From NCBI GenBank assembly GCA_964439795.1, contig CAYTRL010000001.1, positions 1 to 46,365 of the forward strand: 46,365 nt of DNA, written 5' to 3'. The stretch is from an uncultured Thermodesulfobacteriota bacterium. GTDB taxonomy: Bacteria > Desulfobacterota > DSWW01. Shown here one piece after another: positions 755 to 35,269 of the stretch; position 1 is the first letter of the stretch, and every line of letters begins with the position of its first letter. A model generated the notes under the pieces. The model saw only the letters and a program-made list of their open reading frames with translations. It was not told where the DNA came from and did no database searches. Both the position numbers and the translations under genes were made by a program.

Positions 755-3553
755 CTAAGGGTGTATGCCCGTGGAGCGGGCCGCAACCAGCCCGCTGGCC
801 GTGAAGGCGTGGGAGATCGGTTGGAGATAGAACAGCATGGGTCTCGGACCGTACATCTCCGGCTTGCACTCCCAACTCCCGTTGGCCCGCTGACGGTCCA
901 TGAGAAAGGAGACTGCCTGACGGATCACCCCCCGGTAGCGGTCCGGGTCCACGCGGCAGAGTTCGGAGACCGCGATCCCGGTGGAGCTTGCACAGGAACT
1001 GGTGCCGGGGATGATCCCCCAGCCGCCATCACTGTTTACCGCCGACATCAGCGCCGCCCGGCCCTTGATGGCCGCCTGGCTTCCGGCGGGAAGGCCCCGC
1101 AGAAGAGCGGACTGAACATAAGGGAAGTTGCGGCAGAGTCCGCCCCTCCACCCGCCGTCCAGGTCCTGGTGCTCGCCGATCCACTGCACCGCCCTCTTCA
1201 TGCTGATTTCCCCATCCTGCCCACAGGCGGTGACGGCTTCCAGAATGTGCCCCAGAACCTCGGGAACCACGGCGTCTCCCGCGGACTGCCACGTGGTCCA
1301 CAGGCCCATGGCCTCCTGGTTCCGGCCGAGATAAGAGAGCCCGGAGCCCAGGGCGTTCTTAATCCTTTCCGCAATCTCCGGGTCCAGCTGGATCTTTTTG
1401 GCGTCGTTCAGGGCCAGAAGTGTGTGTGCTGTGGATTCGTTGTCTGAGATGATTCCCGGCGAATAGCCCCACCCGCCGTCCTCGTTCTGGGACCGGACCA
1501 GAAAAGCCAGGGCCTGAGCCAGGGCCTGGCTCTGGAATTCTTTGTTGTCGATAAACGCGCGAACGATCATGGACGTAGCCCACATGTCCAGGTTCACGTA
1601 CGACCAGAACCCCTGATCGTCCTGTGCCTGCACCAGGTACGAGGCCGCTTTCCGTGCTTCCACCGAGCGGTTGGTTTCCAGGAACGCAAGAAAGGCCATG
1701 GCCGTGGATACCGGGTTGTTCCAGATGGAGCCGTCGTTCCACTGCAACTCGGGCAGCAGACCGGCCACGGTCTTGTCGCCCAGGAGCACGCGCACGGAGA
1801 GCAGGTCGGACAGGGCCCAGGGTTTCAGGGACTTCCTTTTCTCCTCGGAATCGGTGTGGGACTGAAGCTGTTTGAGGATCTGCTCCTTGCGACGAAAGCT
1901 GCTCATGGACCGCTCGGTGGACGTGGCCAGGGCGGCCAGGATCTCGGTCTTGCGCATGTAGATCGGGTCAAACAGCAGGGGGTCGGACAGGTCGATGGCA
2001 CCGAACCTCTCCATGGCAAGGGAGTACGCCATCTCTTCGTAAATCTCCGCCACCCGGTGGTGGTTCTGCACGGCCTGTCCCCGGAGCCACAGCCTCGCCT
2101 GCTGCACCGTGGCTTCGTGTTCCCCGGACCGGCCCAGGGCCACGGCCACGATGGCCGTTTCAAAGATTCTCGGGCTGGAAGAGCCGGACCATTTCCCACT
2201 GGCCTCCTGGGTGTCCAGGGCAAACCCCACCGCCTTGTTGATCGCTCTCGTCAATCCACCGTCTGGTCCCCGCAGCTCGTTCAGGGCTGCCTGCACGGCG
2301 TTGGTGGTGATCTCCCCCGTCTGCACCGCCTGGCGAACCACGTGCTGCAGTTCGTCACCCCGCGCCCCCAGGCCCAGGGCGATGCTCCGGGCGTGCAGGG
2401 ACATGTGTCCCCGCTGGATCCCCTCGGAGGCCAAGGCCCGTACCGCGGCCAGGTTCTGGGCGATTCCCACGGCGGCGGCGACCCGCGCGAGATCCGACGC
2501 TTTTTCGATCTTCAACATCTTCAAGCAGGCCTGCGCCACGGGGTTGATCGACACGCCCCCCCCCACGATGCCCACGGCCATGGGGAGGGTCAGCTTGCCC
2601 GCCACGAACCGGCCGCCCTCCTCGTCCTCTTCGATCCGCCACACGGACAGGGGTTTGTAGCTTCCCTCCCGGCTGGCAAATGCGTGGGCCCCGGATTCGA
2701 TGCTCCTCCAGTCGTTCCCACAGGCGATGATCACGGAATCCACACCGTTCATGATCCCTTTGTTGTGTGTGGCGGCCCGGTACGGGTCGATCTCGGCGAT
2801 CCGGGATGCGGCCACGATCCCCTCGGCCACCCGTTCCGCGGTGAAGTTCTTGGTGACGAACGCGTTGATAGGGATCCGCACACGGCTGGTCACGCAGCGT
2901 CGGTCCGCCAGGTTGGAAAGGATCTTGAGGCCGGGTTTTCCGCCGGTCAACTCCGCAAAGGTGCCGGCCATGGCCTCGCAGGCCGTGTTGATGAGGTTCG
3001 CGCCCATGGCGTCCCGACAGTCGAGAACGATGTGCACCACCGCGTGACCGGCCGGGGCATCCACCACCCGGAACACCACGTCTCTGGCCCCGCCGCCCCT
3101 TGCCTTGAGGCGGGGATGGATCTGGTCGATCTGGCGGATGAGTTTCTCCTTTTCCGCCTCTATCTTCTTTCCTGCCGCATCCAGATCCGGAACGCCCCGC
3201 ATCTCGATCTGTCCGATCATCTCGGGCTCGTCACACTCTGTGAAGATGCCTCCCCCCTCCCGGGCGAACTTCGCACCGTTGGAGGCCGCTGCGATGACGG
3301 AAGGCTCCTCCACCGCCATGGGCACCAGGACCGTCTTCCCGTCGATGATGAAGTTGGTTCCCAGCCCCAGGGGAAGAAAGGTTACGCCGATCACGTTTTC
3401 CACGGTGGCCGAGGCAACGCGGACCCCCTCCTGAAAGGCCAGCAACAGGGAACTGTCCTTCTCGCTGAGGTCCCCGCGCTGGATCAGCAGGTCGTGCCGC
3501 TCCTCAACCGTCAGATTCCGGAACCCGGAAAGGGCTGAAGTGTCTTTCGCCAT
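755..3553 (-). CDS. Fusion protein: N-terminal class II HMG-CoA reductase plus a C-terminal ~500-aa QW-repeat (squalene-hopene cyclase / prenyltransferase alpha-alpha toroid-like) domain
   Basis: Continuous frame. ATG at 3553 (MAKDTSAL) is preceded by GGAGGA about 7 nt upstream, and the 20 codons the ORF track adds before it are unlikely to be real. HMGR motifs: ENVIG, EEPSVIAAAS, DCRDAMGANLIN, DPYRAATHNKGIMNG, GNDWR, VGIVGGG, EGIQRGHMSLHAR. The C-terminal half has 7 repeats of the type QNEDGGWGY, QDLDGGWRGG, NSDGGWGI and RANGSWE. Confidence 0.9.
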   Translation of the reverse strand: MAKDTSALSGFRNLTVEERHDLLIQRGDLSEKDSSLLLAFQEGVRVASATVENVIGVTFLPLGLGTNFIIDGKTVLVPMAVEEPSVIAAASNGAKFAREGGGIFTECDEPEMIGQIEMRGVPDLDAAGKKIEAEKEKLIRQIDQIHPRLKARGGGARDVVFRVVDAPAGHAVVHIVLDCRDAMGANLINTACEAMAGTFAELTGGKPGLKILSNLADRRCVTSRVRIPINAFVTKNFTAERVAEGIVAASRIAEIDPYRAATHNKGIMNGVDSVIIACGNDWRSIESGAHAFASREGSYKPLSVWRIEEDEEGGRFVAGKLTLPMAVGIVGGGVSINPVAQACLKMLKIEKASDLARVAAAVGIAQNLAAVRALASEGIQRGHMSLHARSIALGLGARGDELQHVVRQAVQTGEITTNAVQAALNELRGPDGGLTRAINKAVGFALDTQEASGKWSGSSSPRIFETAIVAVALGRSGEHEATVQQARLWLRGQAVQNHHRVAEIYEEMAYSLAMERFGAIDLSDPLLFDPIYMRKTEILAALATSTERSMSSFRRKEQILKQLQSHTDSEEKRKSLKPWALSDLLSVRVLLGDKTVAGLLPELQWNDGSIWNNPVSTAMAFLAFLETNRSVEARKAASYLVQAQDDQGFWSYVNLDMWATSMIVRAFIDNKEFQSQALAQALAFLVRSQNEDGGWGYSPGIISDNESTAHTLLALNDAKKIQLDPEIAERIKNALGSGLSYLGRNQEAMGLWTTWQSAGDAVVPEVLGHILEAVTACGQDGEISMKRAVQWIGEHQDLDGGWRGGLCRNFPYVQSALLRGLPAGSQAAIKGRAALMSAVNSDGGWGIIPGTSSCASSTGIAVSELCRVDPDRYRGVIRQAVSFLMDRQRANGSWECKPEMYGPRPMLFYLQPISHAFTASGLVAARSTGIHP

Positions 3554-3801
3554 TGTTTCCTCCTCATTCACGGGATATCGATAAATGTACTGAGTTCCAA
3601 GTGAAAATGTCAACGAAGCGGCGGCTTGTCTGATGGCCCTGGATCGATTATGCTCGAAAGACGCTCCTAAGAACTCGTTGAAAAATGAGGCTTATGGAGA
3701 CTGTTGAAAAAGCCAATGCCACCCCTGTACACGAGTGCAAAAAGAGGTCGCTTTTTCATATGTTCAGGGTCCCGAGCATCCCACTCCGCAGGAGAACGAA
3801 C

Positions 3802-6144: not shown

Positions 6145-6813
6145 TTGGCGTGCCTTTCCTTTATGCAGGTAGTGGTCCTGGTGGCGGCGGTCATTGCCTC
6201 GGTTTTTTCCATTTACACACGATACCGGAACGAACCGCTTTACACCCTTGTCAAACCGATCCCCATGTTCCTGATCATCTCCCTCTTCTTCATGAACCTG
6301 GTGTCCATATCACCCACCTCCACCTTTCCCTACCTGATCTTCCTGGGACTGATCGCCGGGGTGGGCGGGGATATCCTGCTCCTGTCTCCCAAGCGGTTCC
6401 TCGCCGGCCTCATCGCCTTCCTCCTGGGCCACATCCTCTACATCACGGGGTTCGCAACCGTGGCGATCTCCCTGCCGCCGGTCCTGATCCTGGCCCCCTT
6501 TGCCGTCACCCTCACTTTCGGCGTCATTCTGCTGGGGAAGATGGAGGAATCGGCGAGAAAGAAATACCGGATCCCCCTGCTCGTCTACATGGTCGCCATC
6601 ACGTTGATGTTCATCACGGCCCTGAACTTCGACCGGAACACGGGGGCGGAATTCCCCTTCTTCACACTGGGCTCCCTGCTTTTCTGCATATCCGACGGTG
6701 TGCTGGCCTGGAACCGGTTTTACCGGCCCTTCCGGGCGGCACAGGCCATCATCCTGACGACCTACTACTCCGCACAGATCCTGATCGGTTTCAGGGCCAT
6801 GTGCTTCCTCTAA
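6145..6813 (+). CDS. YhhN-family integral membrane protein (lysoplasmalogenase-like), paralog 1
   Basis: 222 aa, all hydrophobic helices. TTG start at 6145 with GGGAGA 8 nt upstream (alternative ATG at 6163). Conserved YhhN-like C-terminus FCISDGVLAWNRF...YYSAQILI. Same length and architecture as the ORF at 34601-35269. Confidence 0.75.
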   Translation: MACLSFMQVVVLVAAVIASVFSIYTRYRNEPLYTLVKPIPMFLIISLFFMNLVSISPTSTFPYLIFLGLIAGVGGDILLLSPKRFLAGLIAFLLGHILYITGFATVAISLPPVLILAPFAVTLTFGVILLGKMEESARKKYRIPLLVYMVAITLMFITALNFDRNTGAEFPFFTLGSLLFCISDGVLAWNRFYRPFRAAQAIILTTYYSAQILIGFRAMCFL

Positions 6814-7859: not shown

Positions 7860-7968
7860 TTTTACATTCGTCCGGCATCGGTACATACTTTTCTTGTTTC
7901 CGATGGGCGGTCGCAAGGCGGTTTTCCCTGCCCGTGGCAACCGGACACCAACAACCCCGGAGGAATGC

Positions 7969-9342
7969 ATGCCCGACTTTTCTCAGAAGCACCCGAAGAT
8001 CACCACCCTGCCCCTGCTGGACAAGGATCCCGACCTGTTGAAGTCCCTGGAACATCACTCCCGGTGGAAAAAGCCGATGCTGGTGATCCCGTCGCTGGCC
8101 AGCGAATTCAACCGGCCGGAGTCCCGCCCCATCTTCGAGAACATCGTGAAGGAGCTGCGCGAAGCCACCTACCTGGAAAAGATCATCATCGGACTGGACC
8201 AGGCCACGGAGTCGGATGTGGAGTTGGCGCGGGACATCCTGCGAAAGCACCACGTGGAGAACTATTTCCTCCAGTGGAACGACGGCCCGGCCTTTGCGGG
8301 GCTGTACGACATGCTGGAAAGGAACGGGTTCGATCTGAGCATCCGCGGCAAGGGCCGGAACGTGTTCATGAGCTTCGGGGTGGCCCTGGCCATGGAGGCC
8401 ACGGCCGTGGGCCTCGTGGACGCGGACATCCGCAGTTTCCGCCGGGAGCAGCTCGATCGGCTCTTCTTCCCGGTTCAGGTCCTGAACTACCAGTTCAGCA
8501 AGGGCTACTACGCCCGGTGGACCCATGACCGGATGTATGGAAGGGTCAAGCGGCTCCTCGTGGATCCCCTCCTCCTGGCCCTGAAACGGCGGTTCACCGA
8601 CTCCAACGAAGAGAAGATGCTCAAACTGATCGATTTTCTCCTGCTGTTCAACTATCAGCTCGCCGGGGAGGTGGTGATCAGCCGGGAGCTGCTGGAGAGG
8701 ATGCGCATTGCTCTGAACTGGGGCATCGAAATCTTCACCCTGATCGAGGTGTACCGGAAGGCCAACCAGAACCAGGTGGCCCAGGTGGATTTCAGCCAGG
8801 ACCCGTTCGAGCACAAGCACCAGAAGGTGTCCCCGGAGAAGAGCGGCGGCTTGCAGAAGATGTCCCTGGATATCATCTACACCCTGCTGAACGCACTGAT
8901 CATCGAAGAGGGACTGGAGGTCTCGCAGCACTTCTTCCGGGACCTGGCCATCACCTACGAGAGCGTGGCGCGGGACCTCATCAAGAAGTATTCCGACACG
9001 GCCCGCTTCAACAACATCGCCTACCACCGGGACACGGAGGAAGCCATGGTCACGGGTCCCCTCAAGGAGGGTATTCTGGGGGCGGCCGAGTACTTCCTGG
9101 AGCCCGGAAACCTGGCCAACCAGTTCCTCCGGTTCACCACCGCAAACCCGGAATTCAAGCCGTTCAACGAACAGGGCCTGCAGCAGACGATCCTCAAAGT
9201 GGCCGAACAGAACCGCATGCGGCCCGCCCTGCAGCCGGAAACGCCGTCCTGGGAGCGCGTCCAGGAAAAAACGCCGGACATCATTCTTCAGATGATCGAT
9301 GTTATCGAATCGGAAAAGAGAAAGTGGGGGCCTCTTTTTTAG
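7969..9342 (+). CDS. Glycosyltransferase resembling mannosylglycerate / glucosyl-3-phosphoglycerate synthases (GT78/GT81-like), with a long C-terminal extension
   Basis: ATG 7969 (MPDFSQK) with GGAGGA upstream. The stretch GKGRNVFMSFG...LVDADIRSF matches, from memory, the GKGDGMNTAL...FYDADITSF core of Rhodothermus mannosylglycerate synthase. Function assignment is moderate, the CDS call is strong. Confidence 0.6.
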   Translation: MPDFSQKHPKITTLPLLDKDPDLLKSLEHHSRWKKPMLVIPSLASEFNRPESRPIFENIVKELREATYLEKIIIGLDQATESDVELARDILRKHHVENYFLQWNDGPAFAGLYDMLERNGFDLSIRGKGRNVFMSFGVALAMEATAVGLVDADIRSFRREQLDRLFFPVQVLNYQFSKGYYARWTHDRMYGRVKRLLVDPLLLALKRRFTDSNEEKMLKLIDFLLLFNYQLAGEVVISRELLERMRIALNWGIEIFTLIEVYRKANQNQVAQVDFSQDPFEHKHQKVSPEKSGGLQKMSLDIIYTLLNALIIEEGLEVSQHFFRDLAITYESVARDLIKKYSDTARFNNIAYHRDTEEAMVTGPLKEGILGAAEYFLEPGNLANQFLRFTTANPEFKPFNEQGLQQTILKVAEQNRMRPALQPETPSWERVQEKTPDIILQMIDVIESEKRKWGPLF

Positions 9343-27635: not shown

Positions 27636-28334
27636 TCAGAGCCAGGAAGCGTCCCGGATCTCCGGAGCCGCCTCGCACACCTTCACCACCTCTTTGAGCT
27701 TGTCGAGGTACGCGTCCCCGCCCTTTGACTGGAAGAGGTGCACCGCCTGCATGCAAGTCCATATGTTCCGGCCCAGGTCGATCACCTTCCTCATGGGCCG
27801 GGGGACGTTCTCCCCCCGGTAGGGGCTGGGGCCCGACGCCTCCAGCTTCCGGGCCACCTTTTCCAGTTCCCCCGGGATCCGGGTCACGTGGTTCACCGTG
27901 GAAAAGGTGTAGGAGAGACCGGAGAGCATGGAGTTGTCGTTGCCGTTGAACTTGGTGCGGTGGTCGTTCTTGTAGATGACCAGGGGCTTGCCCGCGGCAA
28001 ATGCCACGGCGGTCTCCACCACCCCCCCCTCGTCGGGCACCCGGCCGTTCATGTTCAGCACCAGCCAGTCGCAGCCCTCCAGGATCTGAAAGATGTCCAG
28101 AGCGAAGATCGCCTTGCCCACGATCCTGTTCAGGCTCCGGAACGCCTTGTTCGTCAGGCGCGGGTCGTTCACCGCCTTCATGACAAACGGTTCCAGGCCG
28201 TCCCGGTGCGGGAGGAACGTGTCGTAGCCCGCCTCCTCCAGAACGTCGGCAATGGCGGTCATGCCCGCGATCTCCTCGGGGCAGAACAGCGGCCCGGAAC
28301 AATACACGCGTGTTCGTTTTTGCTTTTCCTTCAC
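27636..28334 (-). CDS. Nucleoside 2-deoxyribosyltransferase-family protein
   Basis: RVYCSGPLF...DWLVLNMNGRVPDEGGVVETAVAFAAGKPLVIY matches the YxAGPLF ... DxGTxxExGxAxAxGKP pattern. GTG start overlaps the upstream stop (GTGA), with GGGAGG 6 nt upstream. Confidence 0.75.
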   Translation of the reverse strand: MKEKQKRTRVYCSGPLFCPEEIAGMTAIADVLEEAGYDTFLPHRDGLEPFVMKAVNDPRLTNKAFRSLNRIVGKAIFALDIFQILEGCDWLVLNMNGRVPDEGGVVETAVAFAAGKPLVIYKNDHRTKFNGNDNSMLSGLSYTFSTVNHVTRIPGELEKVARKLEASGPSPYRGENVPRPMRKVIDLGRNIWTCMQAVHLFQSKGGDAYLDKLKEVVKVCEAAPEIRDASWL

Positions 28335-29788
28335 GGTGACCTCCCTGGGTCGAGGACCGCGGCCGCGGAGATCTCCAGGGGGCGGAAGATCATGTCCACG
28401 TACCGCTGTTCGTCACCCGGCTCGAAGTCCGGATCGATGGGAAAGATATAGGTGGTGAACTCGAGCGGCTTTCCATGCTCGATCTTGTGAAAGTCCTTCA
28501 CGCGGTAGCCCGTGGATGCGTAGGCCCTGAGCGGCGGGTCGTCCTTGGGTCGGAAGCCGTCCACCATGTTGTCCATGTAGTAGAGCCGGATGTCCAGCGT
28601 GCGGAACCCCTCCCCGAAGGTGAGGATGTTCATCCAGCCCCCGGGCGGTCCGTAGAGCAGGCTCCACTTGTAGAGGGCGGGGTCCATCGCCTGTTCCTGC
28701 GGGGACATCACGCCGTCCACCAGGCACGTGTCCTCCCGGTTCCGGGCGTTCATCCAGTGCATGCCCATGGTGTTACGGTTCAGGTCGGTGGTGAAGATCG
28801 ACCGGGACCGTTTGCCGTACTTCACCAGCATCTTCGGAACGGTCAGCGTTCCATTGAAATAGAAGAAGTCGGGGTAGTAGAAGCTATCCGTGTCCAGGGC
28901 CGCGCCGGACAGCCTCTTTACGATGAACTCCGGGAGTGGAATGCCGGCCAGCCGTACGTTGTTCCGTATTCTCCGGACGACCCGCACGGGTCCGTCGATC
29001 TGCCCCAGCCGTTTGGGGATGATGTTTTCCAGGGTGAAGTCGAAGTGCAGGATCCCCAAACGTATGTCCACGATGGAGTGGAAGGTCCTCATGATGTTCG
29101 GCCCCTCCTTTCCTTCGTACACGATGTGCCAGCCGCTCTGGGCCACCGGCTTGTCCGGATCGGTAAACGCGGCATGGTAATGGCTGGAAACCACGTGCAC
29201 CTCGGGCTTGCCGCCGTCGGCCTTCCGGACCCTGTAATCCACGAAATTCTCCGGGGAGAGGGCGGTGGGGGCTGAAAACGAAAGCAGGTAGGCCCAGGCC
29301 GAGGTTCCGTCCCGGGGGTCCAGTGCACGGATCTCCACGCCCCTGCCGGTTCCCGCCGGCCAGGTTCCGGCCGGTGCCCGGTCCCCCATGTGGCGTGCCA
29401 GCAGCACGAACTCGTCCCCGTGGCTGAACACGCCGAAGGAGGGTGCGTCCGAGTAGTTTCCTTCCTCGTCCCTCATCTTGCCCCGCAGGAGACCCTGCGT
29501 GAGGATGAGTTCCCCCAGCGGACCCCGCTCATCCACCTGAAACGGGATACCCAGGAAGCTTCCGTCCCGGTACGCCATCACCCGGAGGTCCCCCAGGGGC
29601 ATCCCGTCGAATACCCCCTGCAGTTCGCGGTTGTTCACGATGACCGGGTCCGGGAACCTCCGCTGGTGCTGGGGGTCCGGCGGGGGCGTGCTGTCCCCAT
29701 CGGACGAGCAGAAACCTTCGGTTCCCGCCAGAAACGCCAGGAGGATCGCCAGGAGCGCGGCCGATGCTTTTCTCATGGTTGCCAGCAT
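28331..29788 (-). CDS. Exported protein of unknown function (~485 aa)
   Basis: Long ORF with normal amino-acid composition and a signal peptide MLATMRKASAALLAILLAFLAG. I recognise no family motif. Start is uncertain among 29827, 29788 and 29776; 29788 has the best RBS spacing. Confidence 0.7.
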   Translation of the reverse strand: MLATMRKASAALLAILLAFLAGTEGFCSSDGDSTPPPDPQHQRRFPDPVIVNNRELQGVFDGMPLGDLRVMAYRDGSFLGIPFQVDERGPLGELILTQGLLRGKMRDEEGNYSDAPSFGVFSHGDEFVLLARHMGDRAPAGTWPAGTGRGVEIRALDPRDGTSAWAYLLSFSAPTALSPENFVDYRVRKADGGKPEVHVVSSHYHAAFTDPDKPVAQSGWHIVYEGKEGPNIMRTFHSIVDIRLGILHFDFTLENIIPKRLGQIDGPVRVVRRIRNNVRLAGIPLPEFIVKRLSGAALDTDSFYYPDFFYFNGTLTVPKMLVKYGKRSRSIFTTDLNRNTMGMHWMNARNREDTCLVDGVMSPQEQAMDPALYKWSLLYGPPGGWMNILTFGEGFRTLDIRLYYMDNMVDGFRPKDDPPLRAYASTGYRVKDFHKIEHGKPLEFTTYIFPIDPDFEPGDEQRYVDMIFRPLEISAAAVLDPGRSP

Positions 29789-29813
29789 GTTTCTTTTCTT
29801 CCGGCCATTCTCG

Positions 29814-30392
29814 TCAATCGACCCCATCCTCCGGGGGAGGGAACCGGTTCAGGAAGAAGTTGTCCTCCAGGGGCCTTCGTACCCGGGCCGACCGGGAAAC
29901 TGCCTGCTGCTTTTCGTTGAGCGTGGACAGGTCCCCGGGGGCACCCACGGCGATCAGGATCATCACCGTGAAATCCTCCGGGATCTGGAAGGATTTTCGG
30001 ATCAGGTCCGGCTGAAACCCGGCCATGGGACGGGCCACCAGGCCCAGTTCCGTGGCCTGGAGCAGGATGTTCTGCACCGCCATGCCCAGGTCGAACAGGT
30101 AATATTCCCTGCCGTCTCCCATGTGGCAGTCCAGGTCCTTCCTGGAGAAACCGATGATGAGAAGGGGGGCGGTCCGGGCCCAGTCGTTCCCCGGGGCAAG
30201 CGCCTCCCGTCCTTTTTCCAGTGCCTCCGGGTCATCCAGCACCAGGAAGCGCCACGGCTGGTGGTTCATGCAGGATGCGGAGAGCTGTGCGGCCTCCATG
30301 AGCGCCTTCTTGTGCGCTTGTTCCAGCGGTTCCGGGGAAATCGCCCGGAAGGCGGACCGTTTTTTCAACAGATCCAGAAATTGGGTTTCCAT
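29814..30392 (-). CDS. Nitroreductase-family protein
   Basis: LLKKRSAFRAISPEPL...AAQLSASCMNHQPWRFLVL. 192 aa. Confidence 0.8.
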   Translation of the reverse strand: METQFLDLLKKRSAFRAISPEPLEQAHKKALMEAAQLSASCMNHQPWRFLVLDDPEALEKGREALAPGNDWARTAPLLIIGFSRKDLDCHMGDGREYYLFDLGMAVQNILLQATELGLVARPMAGFQPDLIRKSFQIPEDFTVMILIAVGAPGDLSTLNEKQQAVSRSARVRRPLEDNFFLNRFPPPEDGVD

Positions 30393-31280: not shown

Positions 31281-33599
31281 TCAGAGCAGGTCCCCGATCT
31301 CTTCGATCCGGTCCAGGGGGTGCACACACGTATCCAGGCACGAACCCGGCAAGGGCGGCAGGCCACGGACCAGGAGGTCCAGGGGGTGGCCCTCACCGAA
31401 CAGGTTGGCGATCATGTGGTTCAGGTTGCCCATGCAGAAGCAGTCGTCCTCCCGGATGGCCTGGAACTCTTCCCGCCTCCAGTAGTAGCAGTCGCTCGTG
31501 GTGTAGAGGTAGCCGTACTCATAACTGGTGGGGGTTTCCCGATGGCGGGCGATCCGCTCCGCCGGCCATCGGTAATCCCCCTCCTGCTCCGCGATGATCG
31601 CTTCCGCGGAGCGGCGGATGTCCAGGGCCTCCCGGAACACGGTCAACGCCCGTTCCTCCCCCTGGGGGTCCAGGCCCAGCCGGTGCTTTCGGCGGAGCAC
31701 CGTTCCCTCGTTCAGGCGGCGTACGTGCTGCACCCGGAGTGCGGTCACCTGGATGCCCCGCTTCACCTCCCGGTACCACCTGTGAACCCGTTCCGGAATG
31801 AGGGGCTCGACGGCCTCGACGCGTTCCGTGAACGCGTCGTACGTTTCCTCCAGGAGACGGAGCTTCTGAAAGTCGGTGGCCTCGAACGATGCAAGCTCTT
31901 CCGGGGTCATGGCACGGATCTCCTGGAACAGGACCCTGCGCGGCTGGAAGTTGATCCCCGCCAGAAGCTCCCCGAAGTCGTCGGCCGAGTCCCAGCCGAT
32001 CAGGTAGGCGATGAGGTTCTCCTCCAGGAGGTCCCGGCCCTGCTCTTCAACGAGGTCCACCAGCAGCCGGTGCATGGGATCGGCCCCCTGCCCGAAGATC
32101 CGTGTGAAGCGGCCGAGAACCTCCTGCCAGGGGGTCTCCGGCTCGTAAGCGAAGCCCAGCGTGGCCCAGTCGTTCAGCCAGTATCCCCACTCGAACCCGC
32201 TGGCGAAGAGCACCTGCCCGTCCATGCCGCTTCCGGCCAGGCGGTTCAGGTCGTTCCAGCGCGAGAAGACGTAGTGGGGCAGGTAGATGGGAATGTCCAC
32301 GTCAAAGCTCACCCAGTAAGCGGTTTCCGGGTAGTACAGCACGGTTCTCTCGCCGATTTCCCCGAGGAGGAACTCCCGCATGTCGTGGAAGTTCTCCTGC
32401 CCGTAGGTGGGGGCCTTGCGGTAGAGGTCGTAGAACTGCACCGAGTGCGGCATGACTCCCACGCGCGGGTCCGCGATGCCCGGGAGAAAGTTGAAGTTGA
32501 TGTCGCCGAAGTGCGGGGCCGTCTGGTCGGTGGTGCAGTGCACCTTGGTGATCAGGTCAACGCCGTAAACCGTGTCCAGGTGCTCCGCGGTAAAGTTGAG
32601 CATGTCCATGGTGCGTACGTCGTCCACCGGGATCGCCTCGGCGGCTCCCAGTTCCACGTTGATGACGTCAAAAGGGGCCTGGAGGATCCGGGCCAGGTTT
32701 TCCGTGATCTGGGGCTGAAACGGGGCGGTGGGGTCCGGCGCCAGGGCGTACGAATTCTGCTGGATGAACTCCAGGGGGGCATCGATCCCCACCCTCAGGC
32801 CCCGGGCGTGGGCGTAGTCGATGATCTGTGCGGCGTGCGGAACCCACGCCTCCATGGAGACGGTGTCCTGCAGCACCCACTGGAAATAGTTCTGCCGGTT
32901 GGCCACCAGCCAGTCCACGTAACGTTCCGCTTCCCGCAGGTGATCCGCCGAGGGGACGAGAAGGGAGTCCATGAGCTCCACCGGGTGCATGGTGTGCACC
33001 GAGGTGCCCCGCCAGGGGTACCCGGGGTTCCGGGTCTTGTCCAGGGTCGGAGGAAGGGAGAGAGCGTCCGGAACATAGGGGTCTTCCGGGTGGTAGAAGC
33101 CGAACCCCAACTGCTCCAGCAGGGCATAGACCGCGTACTGGTTGCCCAGGTCGTCCGGTCCGGCGCCGGCAAGGACCGACAAACCGTTACTCGTTCCCCG
33201 GCGAAGGATGTACCCGCCGGGTTCCAGTGTCGCGATCTCCGTTTCCGGGATCAGGGAAAGGCCCGGGTCGCCGGGATTCAGGGCCAGGACCAGGTCGCCG
33301 GGACCGGTCCCGGAGACGTCCGCGGCGGACAGCCGGATGACGGTAAGGCCGGGGACCCTCCGGAGCAGCGCCAGGCACTGGTCCAGGGCGATCCGCAGTC
33401 CGGTTTCCGGGGCTTCCGGTCCGACAACCGCGACCGAGGTGACGGGTTCACCGGGGCCGAGGTCCGTGAGCGCCGGGTCCGGGTCCGAGGAGCAGGCCGG
33501 GATCGAGAGGACGAGGAGGGCACCCATGGCAGCGGATCGGAGAAGGCCTCTTTTGCAGGGGCTGGAGAGTCGTGACGGTTGATCGGCTCGTATCTTCAT
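31281..33599 (-). CDS. Large lipoprotein of unknown function, possibly glycoside-hydrolase-like
   Basis: ATG 33599 (MKIRADQ) with AAGGAG upstream. Lipobox SIPAC. The segment NQYAVYALLEQLGFGFYHPED resembles N-terminal domains of GH20/GH67/DUF4838-type proteins. The functional call is weak. Confidence 0.6.
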   Translation of the reverse strand: MKIRADQPSRLSSPCKRGLLRSAAMGALLVLSIPACSSDPDPALTDLGPGEPVTSVAVVGPEAPETGLRIALDQCLALLRRVPGLTVIRLSAADVSGTGPGDLVLALNPGDPGLSLIPETEIATLEPGGYILRRGTSNGLSVLAGAGPDDLGNQYAVYALLEQLGFGFYHPEDPYVPDALSLPPTLDKTRNPGYPWRGTSVHTMHPVELMDSLLVPSADHLREAERYVDWLVANRQNYFQWVLQDTVSMEAWVPHAAQIIDYAHARGLRVGIDAPLEFIQQNSYALAPDPTAPFQPQITENLARILQAPFDVINVELGAAEAIPVDDVRTMDMLNFTAEHLDTVYGVDLITKVHCTTDQTAPHFGDINFNFLPGIADPRVGVMPHSVQFYDLYRKAPTYGQENFHDMREFLLGEIGERTVLYYPETAYWVSFDVDIPIYLPHYVFSRWNDLNRLAGSGMDGQVLFASGFEWGYWLNDWATLGFAYEPETPWQEVLGRFTRIFGQGADPMHRLLVDLVEEQGRDLLEENLIAYLIGWDSADDFGELLAGINFQPRRVLFQEIRAMTPEELASFEATDFQKLRLLEETYDAFTERVEAVEPLIPERVHRWYREVKRGIQVTALRVQHVRRLNEGTVLRRKHRLGLDPQGEERALTVFREALDIRRSAEAIIAEQEGDYRWPAERIARHRETPTSYEYGYLYTTSDCYYWRREEFQAIREDDCFCMGNLNHMIANLFGEGHPLDLLVRGLPPLPGSCLDTCVHPLDRIEEIGDLL

Positions 33600-33778
33600 G
33601 GATGCAGGCTCCTTGCAGGAAGAGAAAGAAAGACATCCTATTTTATCAGACAGTCCGAGTGGCTGTACACAGCATGCCGGGAACACTGTCACGCCTTTAT
33701 CCCGATGGATGAAAGATTTTCAGGAAAAACGTAGCATGGAGTACCCACATCGGAACCGGAAGGTGGAAAGGAGAGGAG

Positions 33779-34420
33779 ATGAGACGAATAAAGGACGCTG
33801 GTCCCGACCGCCCGTTGCGGACCGGAGAGCGGGTTCCGGATCCGCTCGGGTTCGGTGGACGAAGTTCCATGATGCTGATGATGGCGGTGCTGGCTGTTTT
33901 CCTGTGGGTCTCCGGATGCGGATTGTTCGTGAAACCTGAAGGGGAACTGATCCCGATCCGTGAAAAGGCCCCCGAGTTTTCCCTCCGGGACCAGAACGAG
34001 GAAATGGTGTCCCTCCAGGGGATGCTGGACCGGGGACCCGTTCTGCTGGTCTTCTACCGGGGGCACTGGTGACTGTTCTGCCGGAACCAGCTCGGGAAGC
34101 TGGCCAGGAACGAAGAAGCCTTCCAGCAGCGAAACGTGGGAATCGTTGCCGTAAGCGTGGACACCCCGGAGGATTTACGGAAACTGGCGGAGAATCAGGG
34201 GATCCTTTATCCCCTGCTGTCCGACCCGGACCGGGAGGTCATCCGTCGCTACGGGGTGGCGGACCATGACGAACCCATTGCCGTGCCTGCCATCTTCCTC
34301 GTGGGGAGGGACGGGACGATCCTGTGGCGGCAGGTGGGCGAGTTCATCGGAAAGCGGCCCCGGCCTTCCTCCCTGCTGGAGGTGATCGACGAGCAGACCG
34401 GCGCGGTCCCCCCTGGTTGA
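33779..34420 (+). CDS. Probable selenoprotein: AhpC/TSA (redoxin)-family peroxiredoxin-like lipoprotein with in-frame UGA (Sec) at 34070-34072
   Basis: ORFs 33779-34072 and 34136-34420 are in the same frame. The junction reads VLLVFYRGHW-TGA-LFCRNQL, i.e. the FYRGxW-C-xxC redox box with the first Cys replaced by UGA. The downstream part continues the fold (VAVSVD, YPLLSD, PAIFLVGRDGTI). Lipobox VSGC. AAGGAG RBS before ATG 33779 (alternative start 33869). Confidence 0.75.
34076..34110 (+). promoter_or_regulatory. Candidate bacterial SECIS hairpin
   Basis: Upper stem CCAGC (34087-34091) / GCUGG (34099-34103) with a G-rich 7-nt apical loop UCGGGAA. Lower stem CUG (34078-34080) / CAG (34105-34107). 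The apical loop starts 19 nt after the UGA. Confidence 0.5.
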
Positions 34421-34600: not shown

Positions 34601-35269
34601 ATGAAGATTGCTTTGCTCCCCCTCATTCCGCTGGCGTTCACGGCCTTCTGCCTGATCCGTGCGGAGTTTGCCGACGACCGGCGGCGGATCTATCTTTGGA
34701 AACCCCTCTCCACCTCCCTGGTGATCCTGACGGCCCTGCTCTCGCTGTGGGACGGCGGGACCCCGAACCTCACCTACACCGCCGGGGTTCTGGTGGGCCT
34801 GGCGCTGTGCATGGCCGGGGACATGATGCTCATGTTCCCGCAGAACCGGAAGGCGTTTCTGGCAGGACTCATCTTTTTCCTTCTGGGACATGTGGCCTAC
34901 GCGGTCACCTTCGCCGTCCTGGGCGGGTTCCACGGTGAGGATTGGGTTTCCGGACTGCTTCTTCTCGTGGTCGGGGTGGCCTTCTTTCTCTACCTGCGGC
35001 CTTCCCTGGGGACGATGAAGGGCCCGGTGATCGTGTATATCCTGGTGATATCGTTCATGGTCAACCGGGGGGTGGCCCTGTTCGAGAGCGAGGCGTTCAC
35101 TCCGGTCCAGGCCTGGATGATCGCCCTGGGTGCGATCCTGTTCTACGTGTCCGACGTGATCCTTGCCCTGGCCCGTTACGCCAGACCGTTCCGGTACAAC
35201 CGGATCAGCCTGGCCTTCTACTATGCCGGGCAGGCCCTCATCGCCCTGGCCGCGTCGTATGCCGGGTGA
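34601..35269 (+). CDS. YhhN-family integral membrane protein (lysoplasmalogenase-like), paralog 2
   Basis: 222 aa polytopic protein. FYVSDVILALARY...YYAGQALI parallels FCISDGVLAWNRF...YYSAQILI of the paralog at 6145-6813. Confidence 0.75.
   Translation: MKIALLPLIPLAFTAFCLIRAEFADDRRRIYLWKPLSTSLVILTALLSLWDGGTPNLTYTAGVLVGLALCMAGDMMLMFPQNRKAFLAGLIFFLLGHVAYAVTFAVLGGFHGEDWVSGLLLLVVGVAFFLYLRPSLGTMKGPVIVYILVISFMVNRGVALFESEAFTPVQAWMIALGAILFYVSDVILALARYARPFRYNRISLAFYYAGQALIALAASYAG

Follow-up and report, generated by a model that had tools for sequence, protein, structure and literature searches.

Positions 33,779 to 34,420 of contig CAYTRL010000001.1 (assembly GCA_964439795.1, an uncultured Thermodesulfobacteriota bacterium) hold two consecutive open reading frames (ORFs) that belong to the thioredoxin-fold redox proteins. 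We analyzed the contig over its full 46,365 nucleotides, referred to as the window. An earlier note on this DNA, made from the letters alone, had proposed the two ORFs to be one gene, interrupted by an in-frame TGA that is read as selenocysteine (Sec). The ORFs (33779-34072 and 34136-34420) indeed share a reading frame, both starts being 2 mod 3, and the TGA at 34070-34072 is separated from the GTG at 34136 by exactly 21 sense codons (34073-34135). Read-through yields a product of 213 aa with the junction VLLVFYRGHW-[TGA]-LFCRNQLGKL, whose residues 60-183 match positions 1-123 of the 124-position Pfam profile PF00578 (AhpC-TSA; E = 1e-31; 109.9 bits as compared to a cut-off of 26). Since this match runs unbroken over the TGA, the two halves constitute a single domain in a single gene. 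Coordinates, junction and the complete AhpC/TSA fold of about 213 aa were thus as previously described, and so was the truncation by standard gene callers: the NCBI, ENA and JGI pipelines all report two products at this locus. The G+C content at third codon positions (GC3) was 0.73-0.79 upstream of the TGA, 0.86 in the 21 linking codons and 0.81 downstream; real genes in the window have a GC3 of ~0.75-0.89 and a second-position G+C content (GC2) of ~0.4. Together with the comparative evidence presented below, these features make it very probable that 33779-34420 is one gene in which UGA 34070 would be decoded as Sec, and that its product is a Prx-like UxxC oxidoreductase and predicted lipoprotein (Table 1).

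Table 1. Features of the selenoprotein locus in the window (1-based positions).
Feature	Position	Strand	Remarks
Shine-Dalgarno-like AAGGAG	33767..33772	+	6 nt 5' of ATG 33779
Coding sequence (CDS), Prx-like UxxC thiol:disulfide oxidoreductase selenoprotein (predicted)	33779..34420	+	213 codons; Sec = codon 98; stop TGA 34418-34420
Lipoprotein signal peptide (predicted)	33779..33919	+	h-region MMLMMAVLAVFLWV; lipobox V-S-G-C; Cys47 = TGC 33917-33919
AhpC/TSA (thioredoxin-fold) domain	33956..34327	+	residues 60-183, across the TGA; PF00578
In-frame UGA, predicted selenocysteine, residue 1 of the U-L-F-C redox motif	34070..34072	+	aligned to first Cys of WCxxC
Cys101 codon TGC, resolving Cys of UxxC (predicted)	34079..34081	+	alignment; opposite peroxidatic Cys of BCP, AhpE
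SECIS-like hairpin within CDS	34087..34103	+	stem CCAGCU (34087-34092)/AGCUGG (34098-34103); loop CGGGA (34093-34097); RNAfold
Pro170 codon CCT, near-invariant	34286..34288	+	at peroxiredoxin catalytic Arg position; aligned to ResA cis-Pro

Aligning the read-through product with 28 Cys-type database homologues—single uninterrupted proteins—revealed the TGA to fall on the first Cys of the FYRGxW-C-P-x-C-N box in nearly all of them, precisely the position to which the earlier note had assigned it. W97 and C101 were near-invariant in this alignment, and the closest database protein (P0001; 50% identical) carries Cys at the position of residue 98.

A DNA pattern for V-F-Y-R-G-x-W-TGA-x-x-C, searched in one genome per species (185,579 species), was present in at least 120 species genomes, with ~4 expected by chance from uniform-base arithmetic. 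Homologues that genuinely end at the TGA had been named as a finding that would speak against recoding, and this is not what we observed: among the matches listed, 113 of 120 loci had at least 100 sense codons beyond the TGA, and for 109 of these loci, read-through gave a product that aligned to the window protein across residue 98 (E < 1e-10). Hosts among these listed matches comprised Acidobacteriota, Gemmatimonadota, Poribacteria, Planctomycetota, Chloroflexota, Myxococcota, Verrucomicrobiota, Methylomirabilota, Dormibacterota, Rubrobacter, SAR324 and others, the closest being the cultured isolate Polyangium sp. y55x31 (L032; 42% identity; E = 6e-48) and a Nannocystaceae metagenome-assembled genome (MAG). 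We also scanned metagenome contigs for the exact VFYRGxW[U/C]xxC motif, allowing TGA, TGC or TGT at the variable codon. The 115 usable matches (L127-L246) split into 62 with TGA, 33 with TGC and 20 with TGT (Sec 62 vs Cys 53), and the 25 best matches to the window protein in this mixed set all carried TGA. For the broader 'Prx-like 1' family, a Sec:Cys ratio of ~1:12 was reported from ocean samples (PMC2398784); the Sec share for the exact motif is much above that.

The Prx-like UxxC proteins are an already described selenoprotein family (PMC1088965, PMC2398784, PMC13188914). They were called 'Prx-like protein' in the Sargasso Sea study (PMC1088965) and 'Prx-like 1' in the Global Ocean Sampling (GOS) study, which counted 225 selenoprotein sequences with pfam00578 and UxxC (PMC2398784); a 2026 review lists them as 'Prx-like thiol:disulfide oxidoreductase' (PF00578; UxxC/UxxU), a high-confidence prediction since 2004 (PMC13188914). 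The window gene shares with these Prx-like selenoproteins the UxxC in place of CxxC, the existence of Cys-type homologues and a bacterial selenocysteine insertion sequence (SECIS) candidate directly after the UGA. It differs in nothing of principle and falls into a subclade with exact VFYRGxWUxxC and a predicted lipoprotein signal peptide. It therefore adds a member to a selenoprotein family known since 2004-2005, with both family and mechanism being established. Of the earlier statement that UxxC redoxins are known from deltaproteobacterial anaerobes, the known family stands, but a confinement to such organisms does not, given the many phyla and at least 120 genomes with the TGA form.

With respect to enzyme class, the best solved relatives by sequence were BCP (2cx3; E = 2e-17) and AhpE (E = 2e-15), followed by ResA (PDB chains; E ~1e-10). 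In the alignment with BCP and AhpE, Sec98 is matched with the Ser/Thr of the peroxiredoxin (S/T)xxC, Cys101 with the peroxidatic Cys, and Pro170—found in at least 90% of the family alignment—with the catalytic Arg of BCP ('AKRAVF') and AhpE ('ANRGTF'). The canonical peroxiredoxin motif PxxxT/SxxC is absent, with Sec98 at the Thr/Ser and no Pro four residues before it (Y-R-G-H-W-U-L-F-C), and so is the canonical catalytic Arg, whose position is taken by Pro170. Alignment with ResA matches both Cys positions of its WCEPC to W-U-L-F-C and the cis-Pro of its 'LPTTF' to Pro170. Two of the three peroxiredoxin triad residues being replaced and the thioredoxin/TlpA arrangement being present, the alignments argue for a 'Prx-like' UxxC thiol:disulfide oxidoreductase rather than a canonical peroxiredoxin. 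The earlier note had placed the UGA at the active-site Cys of a peroxiredoxin-like protein, which is imprecise: the UGA corresponds to the N-terminal Cys of a thioredoxin-like CxxC, but not to the peroxidatic Cys, as Cys101 holds that position.

Accepting the selenoprotein as such, one may still ask whether it acts as a genuine peroxidase, that is, as a peroxiredoxin instead of a thiol:disulfide oxidoreductase. The best Pfam and PDB matches (AhpC/TSA, BCP, AhpE), the peroxidatic position of Cys101 and, as a matter of general chemistry, the fast reaction of selenols with peroxides would all fit such an activity. What makes us regard it as unlikely is the replacement of Thr/Ser by Sec and of Arg by Pro170, along with the combination of W-[C/U]-x-x-C and an aligned cis-Pro, which is the ResA/TlpA/thioredoxin arrangement; the redox motif of the family has likewise been described as thioredoxin-like rather than peroxiredoxin-like (PMC1088965).

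Comparison to named relatives leads in the same direction. PrxU (Eubacterium acidaminophilum type; PxxxTxxU; NF040737) has the same Pfam superfamily and fold and is also a selenoprotein, but its Sec replaces the peroxidatic Cys (TxxU), whereas the window protein has its predicted Sec at the Thr position (UxxC) and Pro in place of Arg; the NF040737 score was 39.5 vs a cut-off of 270. ResA/TlpA/DsbE resemble the window protein in that their W-C-x-x-C matches W-U-x-x-C and their cis-Pro matches Pro170 (E 1e-10 to 2e-16); they are anchored on the outer side of the membrane, as is predicted for the window protein. They differ from it in having Cys for Sec and in being less similar to it than BCP and AhpE are. 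No cytochrome-maturation or CcdA/DsbD genes were found near the selenoprotein gene in the window.

Downstream of the TGA, RNAfold predicted a hairpin within the coding sequence (Table 1), where it encodes N-Q-L-G-K-L-A. It consists of 6 bp and a 5-nt loop with G at loop positions 2-4, at a UGA-loop spacing of 20 nt; the minimum-free-energy (MFE) fold adds a weaker lower stem, so that the whole element spans ~34075-34111, and lowers the energy from -7.5 kcal/mol for the bare hairpin to -11.2 and -16.5 kcal/mol. The hairpin of 5-bp stem and 7-nt loop described in the earlier note is the same structure with the closing U-A pair opened. Published constraints for bacterial SECIS elements comprise a loop of 3-9 nt, an upper stem of 4-16 bp, a G in the first two loop positions, a distance of 16-37 nt from the UGA and an MFE <= -7.5 kcal/mol (PMC13188914). 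The window hairpin lies within all of these limits, and the claim that its position is compatible with a bacterial SECIS was hence upheld. Like the E. coli fdhF-type SECIS, it is a stem-loop in the coding sequence with a small, G-containing apical loop 16-37 nt from the UGA (PMC13188914); unlike it, it has the loop CGGGA and another primary sequence, and among further family members both register and loop vary. An Rfam search around the site returned no family at the gathering threshold or E <= 10, only noise from eukaryotic long noncoding RNA and microRNA models.

Single-sequence folding, being indistinguishable from shuffles, was rejected as evidence by itself, and the hairpin owes its significance solely to the comparison with homologues. 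We therefore compared 169 Sec-type with 46 Cys-type homologues. In the Sec-type set, a stem of at least 5 bp was present in 94-95% and of at least 6 bp in 71-80% of the sequences; loop starts clustered 17-29 nt from the UGA in this set only. Cys-type sequences formed a stem of at least 6 bp in 30% of cases, at scattered positions. Local MFE was -10.7/-11.0 kcal/mol for Sec-type vs -6.7 kcal/mol for Cys-type homologues (Mann-Whitney p = 2e-9 and 2e-7), and a strict script of the published SECIS constraints passed 90 of 169 of the former vs 2 of 46 of the latter (Fisher p = 2e-10). The hairpin is conserved in Sec-type and largely absent from Cys-type homologues.

Closer inspection of the 59 sequences sharing the window's register revealed changes on both sides in six of eight stem pairs (59 such cells vs 20 expected), with a covariation score of 0.34 in this register vs 0.02-0.10 in slid registers. 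At pair 21:31, Gln CAG together with Leu CUG alternates with Gln CAA together with Leu UUG; as these exchanges are synonymous on both sides, they imply selection at the RNA level. At pair 22:30, a Leu-to-Phe change (CUC to UUC) goes together with a change of GAG to GAA. From 57 of the hairpins in this register, with the window left out, we derived a covariance model of 25 nt, which ranked 34083-34107 (+) first on both strands of the 46-kb window (23.7 bits; E ~2e-4; runner-up 16.0 bits). The runner-up, at 2268-2294 (+) (16 bits; E ~0.03), lies antisense to an HMG-CoA reductase fusion gene and is probably a chance match.

Over the whole family (L007-L246, 60 nt after the TGA), the hairpins occupied a few discrete registers, each associated with a peptide of its own: QLGEL, SELRS, RQLAEL, LRQLADY or ELRGLG. 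Hairpins of the ELRGLG class have a GGUC loop like that of E. coli fdhF. On one and the same helix, the RNA element of this family appears to have arisen anew or changed its position several times.

Conservation of hairpin and UGA cannot, on its own, name the amino acid that is delivered. Insertion of Cys at UGA by a tRNA-Sec-like tRNA(Cys) and a SelB-like factor has been described in some uncultured bacteria, and Trp might enter by near-cognate read-through, a UGA followed by C—as found here—being a leaky context. Trp at the nucleophile position of CxxC would, however, inactivate the motif, and UGA systems that insert Cys are uncommon. Of the 30 window genes, 21 end in TGA as their normal stop, for which reason a reassignment of the genetic code was rejected. 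Published work, moreover, records Sec/Cys pairs and bacterial SECIS elements for this family (PMC1088965, PMC13188914). Recoding to an amino acid other than Sec is accordingly a very improbable explanation of the locus.

Via the neighboring uvrA, we found a syntenic orthologue in another metagenome (L247; UvrA 86% identical), in which the order redoxin/yhhN/larA/uvrA is kept. Its redoxin gene is also split by gene callers, has a TGA at the same codon and encodes a lipobox. The two redoxin genes share 76% nucleotide identity over 158 aligned codons, with a ratio of nonsynonymous to synonymous divergence (dN/dS) of 0.27 before the TGA, 0.26 after it and 0.32 across the 21 linking codons. Downstream of the TGA, the proportion of differing synonymous sites (pS) was 0.445 vs 0.158 for nonsynonymous sites (pN; Fisher p = 3e-7); in the linking codons, pS was 0.40 vs a pN of 0.17, with sites too few for significance. 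Purifying selection acts on both sides of the TGA. At a dS of ~0.7, protein-level conservation would not be expected beyond a real stop, and the conservation found here provides indirect evidence suggesting both organisms to decode UGA. Three further candidates for syntenic orthologues (L248 to L250) were rejected as not syntenic. The locus is variable among relatives, an additional OmpA-family gene being located between the selenoprotein gene and yhhN at L247:7331-8002.

These data bear on a more trivial origin of the TGA, namely a Cys codon (TGC/TGT) turned into TGA by nonsense mutation or by a sequencing or assembly error. Such a change would require a single base, the closest database protein has Cys, and Sec machinery is missing from the 46-kb contig and 10 kb beyond. 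Yet five further assemblies made independently, of four JGI metagenomes and one ENA metagenome, contain the locus with its TGA at 99.7-100% identity, copies too similar to inform on selection; because the TGA is common to six independent assemblies, an assembly error is excluded. A pseudogene is at odds with the TGA being kept in L247 at a synonymous divergence of ~0.7 and a downstream dN/dS of 0.26, with the same TGA in at least 120 genomes and 62 of 115 metagenome matches, and with a hairpin that is conserved along with TGA forms but not Cys forms, leaving this origin with hardly any probability. Least credible of all are two independent genes, the first for a lipoprotein of 97 aa that stops at TGA 34070 and the second for a protein of 94 aa that starts at GTG 34136: the two products given by the NCBI, ENA and JGI callers are in their favor, but neither half is a complete fold and the Pfam domain needs both, the 21 linking codons carry the redox Cys101 and helix alpha-1 (GC3 0.86; pS 0.40 > pN 0.17) and show protein-level conservation across more than 100 homologues, and Cys-type homologues are single uninterrupted proteins.

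Several observations weigh against a Sec-decoding gene with a functional SECIS at this locus. None of selA, selB, selD or tRNA-Sec was found within the 46-kb contig or the ~10 kb that follow it on the right (accessed via an 88-kb JGI contig), which is the range that this search covered. The contig L254 of a related MAG (GCA_964572565.1) has no selenoprotein gene at the locus, which is occupied by the gene of an unrelated 169-residue lipoprotein (L254:60-569). As for the hairpin, its bare form sits exactly at the threshold of -7.5 kcal/mol and, in sequence of 62-65% GC, is no more stable than dinucleotide shuffles (z = +0.5). The 46 Cys-type controls belong in part to different subfamilies and have a GC content of 0.52 vs 0.58 for Sec-type homologues; the 59 sequences in the covariation analysis were chosen for having a hairpin in the window's register; and both the hairpin conservation and the covariance-model score partly reflect the conserved Q-L-G-x-L peptide and its coding sequence. 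Finally, the best NCBIfam match, the SelL-related redox protein (NF040769, SelL_rel_redox), has a Prx-like fold with the redox motif at the same place but was hit with 73.7 bits vs a cut-off of 120 over 100 of 173 profile positions, below the NCBI membership threshold. Eukaryotic SelL itself contains UxxU (PMC2398784).

The N-terminal part of the protein points to export. Residues 31-47 (MMLMMAVLAVFLWVSG-C) form a hydrophobic stretch that ends in a lipobox, with 14 hydrophobic residues before VSG-C47, and VSG-C47 fits the lipobox rule [LVI][ASTVI][GAS]C. The FLWVSGC that had been noted before is thus present, and Cys47 is predicted to become the lipidated N-terminus of the mature protein. Lipoboxes also occur in the relatives L247 (LAAAGC), L179 (GTSFGC), Polyangium (L032; AVAAGC), L047 (QSVGC) and P0001 (VLLGC), as well as in a Nannocystaceae homologue. 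Of all homologues, ~9% matched a crude lipobox regular expression, many others having N-terminal transmembrane helices or ordinary signal peptides, and a few of the more distant Sec-type members had neither signal peptide nor transmembrane helix. The occurrence of lipoboxes, transmembrane helices or signal peptides suggests the family to be mostly extracytoplasmic, and the subclade of the window protein is probably lipid-anchored. A lipid-anchored selenoprotein is not new in kind, exported and lipoprotein-type selenoproteins having been predicted before (bioRxiv 10.1101/2022.07.06.499078).

The start codon is ambiguous between ATG 33779, which is preceded by a strong AAGGAG and followed by a charged n-region, and ATG 33869, the choice of the JGI gene caller (67-aa product). 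The orthologue L247 has an N-terminal extension of similar length behind GAGGAGG. In the JGI 3300009128 assembly (L004:93), a 1-nt deletion at ~33867 breaks the frame from ATG 33779 and is compatible only with ATG 33869; this may be an error at a contig end.

Insertion of Sec would most likely follow the canonical bacterial pathway. SelB carrying Sec-tRNA(Sec) would bind the hairpin at 34087-34103 while the ribosome is positioned on the UGA, Sec98 would be inserted, and translation would continue to the true stop at 34418. The product would then be exported, lipidated at Cys47 and anchored on the outer side of the membrane, as predicted from signal peptide and lipobox. There, the selenolate of Sec98 may attack an oxidized substrate, which could be a disulfide or a sulfenic acid and perhaps also a hydroperoxide, and Cys101 would resolve the intermediate to give a selenenylsulfide, from which an envelope reductant could recycle the enzyme.

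The value of this finding is mainly corrective, and current understanding remains unchanged. The split annotation also hits homologues in well over a hundred genomes, implying that selenoproteome sizes are underestimated for lineages from soil, sponges and the sea. In addition, the family contributes modest data on the frequency of Sec forms and on codon-level SECIS covariation, illustrating how a SECIS hairpin can be laid over a coding helix via paired synonymous codons (CAG/CUG vs CAA/UUG). A Sec-dependent redox enzyme on the outer side of the membrane, if true, would imply a need for selenium and point to thiol or peroxide chemistry in the envelope. We tentatively extend this to a broader proposal, whose prospects we see as slightly short of even: with a lipid-anchored extracytoplasmic selenoenzyme subclade and membrane-anchored relatives, in which Sec is about as frequent as Cys in environmental DNA (62 vs 53), selenium-dependent envelope redox chemistry might be routine, and largely unannotated, in abundant lineages including Acidobacteriota, Gemmatimonadota, Poribacteria and Myxococcota, many of which are not considered strictly anaerobic, and would then not be a special trait of anaerobic deltaproteobacteria.

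Regarding genomic context, the selenoprotein gene appears to stand alone. It is followed by 180 nt with a promoter-like site and then by yhhN, larA and uvrA; upstream lies a divergent ORF of 803 residues (31281-33692, -) with a coding GC signature and no Pfam match. The best named relatives of the window's UvrA are ~72-73% identical and stem from MAGs labelled Myxococcota, Deltaproteobacteria and Planctomycetes. A scan for TGA-interrupted genes returned 110 same-frame ORF pairs, a number that is uninformative in GC-rich DNA, and inspection yielded adjacent genes only; neither a tRNA, a CcdA/DsbD-type partner nor a further evident selenoprotein gene was found in the window or the next 10 kb.

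Some features elsewhere in the contig deserve mention. Two YhhN-family paralogues are encoded at 6145-6813 (+) and 34601-35269 (+), the second directly 3' of the selenoprotein gene, a pairing that is kept at L247. Two further ORFs, at 28331-29827 (-; 498 residues) and 7894-9342 (+; 482 residues), likewise show the GC signature of coding DNA and lack Pfam matches. Lastly, a 952-residue ORF at 755-3613 (-) combines a complete HMG-CoA reductase domain (residues 36-408) with squalene-hopene-cyclase-like N- and C-terminal repeats (655-931), an unusual fusion of two isoprenoid-pathway modules.

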